From Escherichia coli (lineage in GTDB: Bacteria; Pseudomonadota; Gammaproteobacteria; Enterobacterales; Enterobacteriaceae), in NCBI RefSeq assembly GCF_003334355.1, contig NZ_QOWP01000065.1: DNA of 6,805 nucleotides; one strand, given 5' to 3'. Positions 6,526-6,651 of this stretch are shown here, in pieces; the first letter of the stretch is position 1, and the number at the start of each line of letters is the position of its first letter. The notes beneath the pieces were generated by a model, which was not told where the DNA came from, ran no database searches, and saw nothing but the letters and a program-made list of their open reading frames with translations. Both the position numbers and the translations under genes were made by a program.

Positions 6526-6651
6526 ATGAAATTAAGACATCTCGATATCTTTTATGCTGTAATGACTTGTGGTTCCTTAACGCGTGCGGCTGAAGTTTTA
6601 CATATTTCTCAACCCGCGGCGAGTAAAGCACTCAAACATGCTGAGCACTGA
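6526..6651 (+). pseudogene. N-terminal remnant (41 codons) of a LysR-type transcriptional regulator, truncated by the IS10 inside end
   Basis: MKLRHLDIFYAVMTCGSLTRAAEVLHISQPAASKALKHAEH* is a textbook LysR-family N-terminal HTH. The frame runs into the IS10 terminus at 6648 and stops at a TGA (6649-6651) supplied by the IS end. Not in the ORF track because it is short. Confidence 0.75.

Follow-up and report, generated by a model that had tools for sequence, protein, structure and literature searches.

The DNA analysed here, called the window throughout, is a 6,805-bp stretch of Escherichia coli (assembly GCF_003334355.1, contig NZ_QOWP01000065.1) that carries tetracycline resistance genes and, near one end, an open reading frame (ORF) of only 41 codons. 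The two ends of the window form an inverted repeat of 161 nucleotides (nt) which is 96% complementary (arms 1–161 and 6645–6805), and these arms are the inside ends of two copies of the insertion sequence (IS) IS10 that bound the window. Between them lie tetD, tetC, tetA, tetR, an ArsR-like gene (jemC), jemB, jemA and gltS, and matches with an identity of at least 99% are found in hundreds of plasmids and E. coli genomes. Taken together, the inverted-repeat ends, the gene content and these matches identify the window as the central part of transposon Tn10. Tn10 serves as the textbook example of a composite transposon, and tet(B) ranks with the most widespread genes for tetracycline efflux. The gene next to the short ORF encodes a DDE transposase of 402 amino acids (aa), named an IS4-like ISVsa5-family transposase by the Prokaryotic Genome Annotation Pipeline (PGAP). 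Since IS10-Right has been placed on the tetD side (PMC9412624), the IS10 copy at the short ORF is IS10-Left. As set out below, the ORF is the severed start of a lysR gene which is found intact on the chromosome of Providencia stuartii, the species from which the cargo of Tn10 was very probably captured.

A truncated lysR gene at the IS10-Left junction

The ORF opens with an ATG at position 6526 and runs for 41 sense codons to a TGA stop at 6649–6651. The IS10 inside end (CTGAGAGATCCCCTCATAATTTCCCC..., CTGAGAGATCCCC..., CTGAGAGATCC...) starts at 6648 and supplies the third base of codon 41 as well as the stop codon. The non-IS part of the ORF is thus confined to positions 6526–6647, which amount to 122 nt, or 40 codons and two further nucleotides. 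A preliminary description, made from the letters of the window alone, had read this ORF as the helix-turn-helix (HTH) start of a LysR-type regulator cut off at the IS10 junction, as a footprint of the DNA into which IS10 had inserted and as a clue to the donor of the segment. Profile searches agree with the family assignment: the peptide matches Pfam HTH_1 (PF00126) with E=4.4e-13, its residues 3–40 aligning to positions 1–38 of the 60 in the model, and in NCBIfam it matches 37 families at E up to 1, where all 25 of the 25 matches listed are LysR-type regulators aligned from the N-terminus, an agreement that lies far outside what chance would give.

The copy in Tn10 is a fragment of a LysR-type transcriptional regulator (LTTR) gene, comprising only the first 13% of it, and no functional LTTR. 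The N-terminal HTH that marks the family is present in part, with the recognition helix cut short at its end and the wing absent, while neither the usual length of about 300 aa nor a LysR_substrate domain (PF03466) is found in an ORF of 41 aa that stops in IS10. The peptide ends within the recognition helix of the HTH and lacks the wing, the linker helix and the effector-binding domain, and it would therefore be inert, with no regulatory activity.

The stump has not gone unreported. In RefSeq E. coli genomes, PGAP already annotates it as ‘LysR family transcriptional regulator; incomplete; partial in the middle of a contig; missing C-terminus’, a 120-nt feature between gltS and the IS10 (ISVsa5-family) transposase gene that is present in 366 of 5426 complete genomes. 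The matching plasmids in PLSDB carry no annotation for the region, pseudogenes being omitted there. As a feature, the stump is therefore known, a routine by-product of IS insertion which is flagged as a pseudogene in RefSeq. The PGAP annotation concerns the same feature in the same place, without the source gene, the donor or an analysis of the junction, all of which are identified here.

The intact locus on the Providencia stuartii chromosome

The donor was found only through a look-up of the exact Tn10 GltS protein together with a short flank, which collapses the Tn10 copies into few places. This look-up returned two 4.4-Mb chromosomes on which gltS is followed by an intact LysR gene of 301 aa, a gene for an oxidoreductase dependent on flavin adenine dinucleotide and a RidA gene; they are 99.56–99.85% identical to window positions 2590–6647, where the match ends. 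A further ten chromosomes were obtained by looking up the donor LysR protein. The sources of the exact intact protein, which is encoded on 517 contigs, name P. stuartii, an opportunistic pathogen with intrinsic resistance to tetracyclines. The intact protein combines HTH_1 (PF00126) with LysR_substrate (PF03466), and its residues 1–40 are identical to those of the stump. Native residue 41 is Gln (CAA), and the His found in Tn10 is created by the first IS10 base. In every comparison made, homology to the intact gene stops exactly at 6647, so that the proposed cut at the IS10 junction is confirmed to the base, and the expected clue to the donor is provided by an intact homologue lying directly downstream of gltS on P. 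stuartii chromosomes, with a nucleotide identity of 99.6–99.8%.

The correspondence extends over the entire passenger of Tn10. Window positions 159–6647 (6489 bp) are 99.55–99.82% identical in ten P. stuartii chromosomes and align without gaps in seven of them; two others show one 1-bp gap and the last is split by an IS inside gltS. The end points of the alignment, 159 and 6647, are exact at both IS10 ends. On the chromosome the genes follow one another in the order lactonase, RidA, Rob-like regulator (310 aa), tetC, tetA, tetR, jemC, jemB, jemA, gltS and lysR (301 aa), after which come dehydrogenase, RidA, a YdgH-like gene, a thiamine-pyrophosphate enzyme and then Rhs genes. This order and its flanks are the same in the ten fully retrieved chromosomes, two of which have an IS inside a gene, and two shorter loci are consistent with it. 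No IS is present at or in the segment in eight of the ten fully retrieved loci, one of the remaining two having an IS10 at the tetD site and the other a different IS in gltS. The latter (L030, CP008920.1, 6914–9770) encodes a 434-aa transposase with the Pfam domain DDE_Tnp_1_4 and splits gltS into pieces of 134 and 282 aa.

Individual strains differ from Tn10 at 12–26 positions and, among seven P. stuartii strains, from each other at 0–24. Five substitutions are private to Tn10 relative to these seven strains (651, 2060, 2617, 2759 and 4307), and none falls in 6441–6647; positions 6526–6647 contain no variable site at all among Tn10 and the seven strains. Two of the private substitutions are intergenic, at 651 near the start of tetC and at 2617 in the tetA–tetR control region, and the other three lie one each in tetA, tetR and jemB. 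Judged from its sequence, the Tn10 passenger is one P. stuartii allele of this chromosomal segment and falls inside the diversity of the species.

Target sites at both IS10 junctions

Across the junction position, intact lysR reads ...AAACATGCTGAGCA/ACAATTAGGG, in codons AAA CAT GCT GAG CA/A CAA TTA GGG (K H A E Q Q L G), the slash marking where Tn10 departs from it. The 9 bp that adjoin IS10-Left, TGCTGAGCA, agree with NGCTNAGCN, the target consensus of IS10. The window contains a single copy of the consensus core, GCTNAGC, and this copy lies at 6640–6646 and hence at the lysR junction, which substantiates the view of the stump as a footprint of the IS10 target DNA. This hotspot consensus of IS10 and Tn10 is said to go back to work by Halling and Kleckner in 1982. 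Going rightwards from the tet genes of the donor, the GCTNAGC at the lysR junction is the first perfect site to be met.

The opposite end of the passenger has the same build. tetD comprises 138 codons, the last of which, together with the stop codon, comes from the IS10-Right end, and the native residue 138 is a Gln. The corresponding intact P. stuartii gene (L029, 3114–4046) encodes a Rob-like protein of 310 aa whose best NCBIfam match is RobA, at 273.6 bits and below the cutoff of 380. Both stumps end alike, a native Gln (CAA or CAG) being turned into His and a stop through the C-TGA of IS10. On the basis of this sequence comparison, TetD is a C-terminally truncated Rob-like regulator, of which the N-terminal DNA-binding part has been retained and which was cut by IS10-Right.

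The intact Rob-like gene holds a single copy of the target sequence TGCATTGCC. One P. stuartii locus (L027, CP027398.1, 2296–3642) carries a single IS10 at the exact tetD junction of Tn10, in the same orientation and flanked by a direct repeat of TGCATTGCC, with lysR intact. Reading this IS10 as a preserved ancestor of Tn10 was considered and rejected as the simplest explanation, the passenger of this strain being identical to that of the IS-free locus L031 and differing from Tn10 at 22 positions, compared with 12 for the closest strain. The insertion looks like a recent parallel event at the same site. It nevertheless means that the first step of Tn10 formation does occur in P. stuartii at this site, and by analogy with the tetD side, a simple insertion is suggested for the lysR side as well. 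The coordinates of all features are collected in Table 1.

Table 1. Features of the window, with positions in window coordinates and the basis of each assignment.
Feature	Position	Strand	Basis
IS10-Right inside end (partial)	1..158	+	Inverted repeat; identical to the L027 IS10 across 158 nt
tetD, codons 1–137 of the 310-aa Rob-like (AraC + GyrI-like) gene	155..571	-	Direct comparison of TetD with the 310-aa protein
9-bp IS10 target TGCATTGCC at the tetD junction	159..167	.	Symmetric near-consensus; direct repeat around IS10 in L027
Whole Tn10 passenger: tetD', tetC, tetA(B), tetR, jemC, jemB, jemA, gltS, lysR'	159..6647	.	6489 bp, contiguous in the P. stuartii chromosome
gltS (sodium/glutamate symporter), native neighbour upstream of lysR	5090..6295	+	Exact protein on P. 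stuartii chromosomes, followed by intact lysR
Native gltS–lysR intergenic region	6296..6525	+	99.6–99.8% identical to P. stuartii, one polymorphic site at 6440
Upstream elements of lysR	TGAC 6449–6452; TATCTGATT 6457–6465; TAGAAT 6484–6489	+	Conserved across Providencia and Xenorhabdus
lysR 5' stump, nt 1–122 of the 906-nt gene	6526..6647	+	Pfam HTH_1; residues 1–40 identical to the intact P. stuartii protein
9-bp IS10 target TGCTGAGCA	6639..6647	.	nt 114–122 of lysR; fits NGCTNAGCN
IS10-Left inside end (partial)	6648..6805	-	Inverted repeat with 1–161; adjacent transposase gene

Relatives of the donor gene

A word-indexed protein search with the 41-aa peptide did not find the intact gene and returned short fragments only, namely copies of Tn10, pieces with frameshifts and, in Klebsiella and Raoultella records, N-termini which are 80–88% identical. 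These last (P0007, P0011, P0012, P0015, P0017 and P0038), mostly frameshifted or partial calls, probably go back to a related LysR gene of enterobacteria. A search that covered the cluster representatives exhaustively yielded a 301-aa protein (P0035) whose residues 1–40 are identical to the stump, encoded on Logan contig L002, where a tetA/tetR pair, gltS and an intact LysR gene lie side by side. L002 was rejected as the donor and is a relative only, since its nucleotide identity to the window is 75–84% and its tetA–tetR pair stands directly beside gltS, with no jemCBA.

A scan of species-representative genomes with P0035, which did not return P. stuartii itself, revealed orthologues, all of them intact, in Providencia (several species), Xenorhabdus (two species) and two metagenome-assembled genomes (MAGs) of Neisseriaceae. 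These loci show a nucleotide identity of 67–85% to the window (77–85% for the Providencia and Xenorhabdus species), and homology ends at 6647 in all of them. Of the 13 related loci that do not belong to the donor set, 12 have gltS directly upstream of lysR and on the same strand; the thirteenth (L011) starts inside lysR. Across Providencia and Xenorhabdus, the first 40 codons of the gene show 14–25 nucleotide differences and zero amino-acid differences, which indicates that intact lysR is under purifying selection and is both functional and old.

A counterpart of the whole segment is found in strain P8538, which is labelled P. vermicola and belongs to the P. stuartii/P. thailandensis complex (PMC8487129). 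Its locus (L015) is collinear with the entire Tn10 passenger, 159–6647, at about 81% nucleotide identity and shows the same gene order and outer flanks. Between tetC and tetA it holds an extra 3.6 kb (2891–6227) with a thiamine-pyrophosphate enzyme, a nitroreductase and an HxlR regulator. Relatives of P. stuartii vary in their tet locus (L015, 2891–6227; L002, 3808–7490), and the Tet(B)-like pumps of P8538 and L002 are only 80–83% identical to Tet(B).

Gene neighbourhood and upstream region of lysR

In P. stuartii, the gene upstream of lysR is gltS (231-bp spacer) and the gene downstream is that of the dehydrogenase (57-bp spacer), which is followed by a Rid-family gene; both neighbours lie on the strand of lysR. 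The dehydrogenase product passes the NCBIfam model for D-amino-acid dehydrogenase (404 bits, where the cutoff is 383). The order gltS, lysR, D-amino-acid dehydrogenase and ridA forms a one-strand module in Providencia, Xenorhabdus and the two Neisseriaceae MAGs (L004–L013, L010, L011 and L015, at about 8600–12600 in each); within the X. innexi module (L004), no ridA match was found.

For LTTRs, a divergent arrangement with the regulated gene is common, not obligatory. The preliminary description had assumed such an arrangement and had placed the divergent target where the IS now lies. Neither the arrangement nor the geometry holds, as lysR is divergent from nothing in the donor or related genomes, its neighbours being encoded on the same strand in P. 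stuartii and in those related loci that extend far enough, and as a divergent partner would lie upstream of lysR and not at the position of the IS. The IS now stands in place of the last 784 nt of lysR and, after them, of the dehydrogenase gene and ridA. Based on gene context, the targets of lysR are likely its same-strand neighbours, a set for amino-acid uptake, oxidative deamination and imine hydrolysis, and the regulator would thus control an amino-acid pathway.

The best NCBIfam match of the full-length donor protein is the model of E. coli LysR (PRK11013; NF008239). Both proteins share the two-domain build of HTH_1 and LysR_substrate; however, the match reaches 154 bits and remains far below the cutoff of 288, which argues that the donor protein is not an orthologue of E. 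coli LysR. Their contexts differ as well, E. coli lysR being divergent from lysA, whereas the donor gene lies between gltS and the D-amino-acid dehydrogenase gene.

Three elements upstream of lysR, TGAC, TATCKGATT and TAGAAT, are kept intact in Tn10, where the second reads TATCTGATT and contains an ATC-N-GAT palindrome. These conserved elements are candidate promoter or operator sites of lysR. A generic scan of 6200–6805 for sigma-70 promoters and terminators gave results at chance level.

Origin of the Tn10 passenger

We are highly confident that the stump is the inert start of a chromosomal LysR-type gene of P. stuartii and that the cargo of Tn10 was captured from that chromosome by two IS10 copies. 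On this account, one IS10, now IS10-Left, would have transposed into the hotspot TGCTGAGCA at nt 114–122 of lysR, and another, now IS10-Right, into TGCATTGCC in the Rob-like gene 6.5 kb to the left, although the order of events is something we infer. Both copies would then have mobilised the enclosed segment (rob', tetC, tetA(B), tetR, jemCBA, gltS and lysR') as the composite transposon Tn10, while the remainder of lysR, the dehydrogenase gene and ridA would have been left on the donor chromosome, together with the second copy of the 9-bp lysR target at the outside end of the IS. At the lysR end, the C-TGA of the IS10 terminus would close the frame one codon past the junction and yield the 41-residue peptide. 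The direction of transfer, from P. stuartii to Tn10, follows from the fact that both truncated genes are whole in P. stuartii, together with the sister locus at about 81% identity and the conservation of the module across genera.

Several observations sit less comfortably with this account. The closest strain still differs from Tn10 at 12 of 6489 positions, so that the donor is placed to species and not to an exact lineage, and a genome with an IS10 inside lysR and the rest of lysR beyond its outside end was not found among the retrieved P. stuartii genomes. Furthermore, the inside ends of the two IS10 copies (1–158 and 6648–6805) are mismatched at 6 of 158 positions (3.8%), compared with a divergence of only 0.2–0.4% between the passenger and P. 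stuartii. As the former divergence is far above the latter, the two copies were probably already different when they inserted. The inactivity of the peptide, finally, is deduced from the domains it lacks, and given the promoter-like elements retained upstream, it may be speculated that the stump is transcribed into IS10-Left, antisense to the transposase gene.

Of the alternatives, a chance ORF with a spurious resemblance to an HTH can be dismissed outright: it has only 41 codons, and many such ORFs exist in the window, yet the Pfam match reaches E=4.4e-13, 40 residues are identical to an intact conserved gene and the DNA of the locus is 99.6–99.8% identical. The remaining three concern how the lysR junction arose, which way the segment travelled and whether the stump has been kept for a purpose. 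As to the junction, IS10 might have landed further downstream, such as in the dehydrogenase gene or past it, after which its inside end attacked the lysR hotspot and the intervening DNA was lost, an adjacent deletion of the kind that IS10 promotes. Intramolecular deletions and inversions by IS10 and Tn10 also choose NGCTNAGCN sites, so that the consensus match at 6639–6647 fits both routes, and no intermediate was found in which a 9-bp duplication borders an IS10 in lysR. Against this stands the simple insertion with a 9-bp duplication that exists in P. stuartii at the tetD junction; one step is enough and simpler. A deletion is hence unlikely, and a direct insertion into lysR would be the preferred route.

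Reverse transfer, with Tn10 as the source of the passenger in P. stuartii and its IS10 copies lost afterwards, would leave the stump uninformative about origin. tet(B) is usually classed as acquired and appears among the chromosomal resistance genes of P. stuartii (PMC12729570), and one strain does have an IS10 at the tetD junction. In Tn10, however, 784 nt of lysR and the final 172 codons of the Rob-like gene are missing; in P. stuartii both genes are complete and in frame, and loss of an IS cannot recreate them. The sister lineage with the same locus and flanks at about 81% identity, the module gltS–lysR–dehydrogenase–ridA kept across genera, and the polymorphism of P. stuartii across the segment, in which Tn10 appears as one allele among the strains, also speak against it, and we regard such a transfer as extremely improbable. 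Slightly less far-fetched, and still very improbable, is the retention of the stump for a function, either because its peptide interferes with LysR-type regulators of the host or because antisense transcription damps the IS10-Left transposase. The upstream elements TGAC, TATCKGATT and TAGAAT are intact in Tn10, the ORF points into IS10 and opposite to the transposase gene, and the stump is invariant across hundreds of copies. This invariance, however, is no greater than that of the rest of the young Tn10, all copies of which are at least 99% identical, and thus carries no signal of selection. Moreover, the peptide ends in the recognition helix and is devoid of wing, dimerisation and effector domains, the generic promoter scan remains at chance level, and a stump is what is expected as a by-product of IS insertion.

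Relation to known systems and significance

The logic by which a truncated gene is traced to its source has been applied to TnaphA1-pIE545, in which a partial glnP cut by IS102 was traced to Klebsiella michiganensis (PMC12670165). In both transposons the passenger is more than 99% identical to a contiguous chromosomal stretch of one species and ends in an IS-cut gene. They differ in their elements, IS102/IS903 of the IS5 family in TnaphA1-pIE545 and IS10 of the IS4 family in Tn10, as well as in resistance gene and donor species. Unlike TnaphA1-pIE545, Tn10 has cut genes at both ends, and one of them, tetD, is expressed and has been given a name.

Criteria for assigning the origin of mobile resistance genes have been laid out by Ebmeyer et al. 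(2021; PMC7782503). Among the traits they name, the P. stuartii locus shows a high identity to the mobile copy, a synteny conserved in the species and a syntenic locus of lower identity in a related lineage; with regard to mobile elements, most of the retrieved P. stuartii strains (8/10) have none at the locus. According to the same authors, the species origin was known for no tetracycline resistance gene (PMC7782503, 2021), and a further study reported no mobile efflux gene with a highly similar non-mobile counterpart (PMC7725328, 2020); both systematic analyses thus give mobile tetracycline resistance genes no known species of origin. tet(B) has been listed among the chromosomal genes of P. 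stuartii (PMC12729570, PMC10817959). In the searchable literature, outside of which subscription literature lies, no statement naming P. stuartii as the source of Tn10 or tet(B) was found. That the passenger, including tetA(B)–tetR, is native to the P. stuartii chromosome, and P. stuartii consequently the origin species of tet(B), is very likely correct; that it is both correct and so far unpublished has about an even chance.

If true, a mobile tetracycline efflux gene would for the first time be assigned an origin at species level, judging by the searchable literature. The event that created Tn10 would then have left the lysR stump and tetD as its two scars, and TetD would be a protein made by IS10 truncation, while jemABC would be neighbours carried along with the tet genes and the gltS of Tn10 a transporter parted from its probable regulator. 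The value of the stump itself is that of a marker, by which one end of the captured DNA is pinned to one base in one gene of one species. With the contiguous segment, the intact flanking genes and the sister locus, the capture event behind Tn10 becomes testable and datable with existing genomes.
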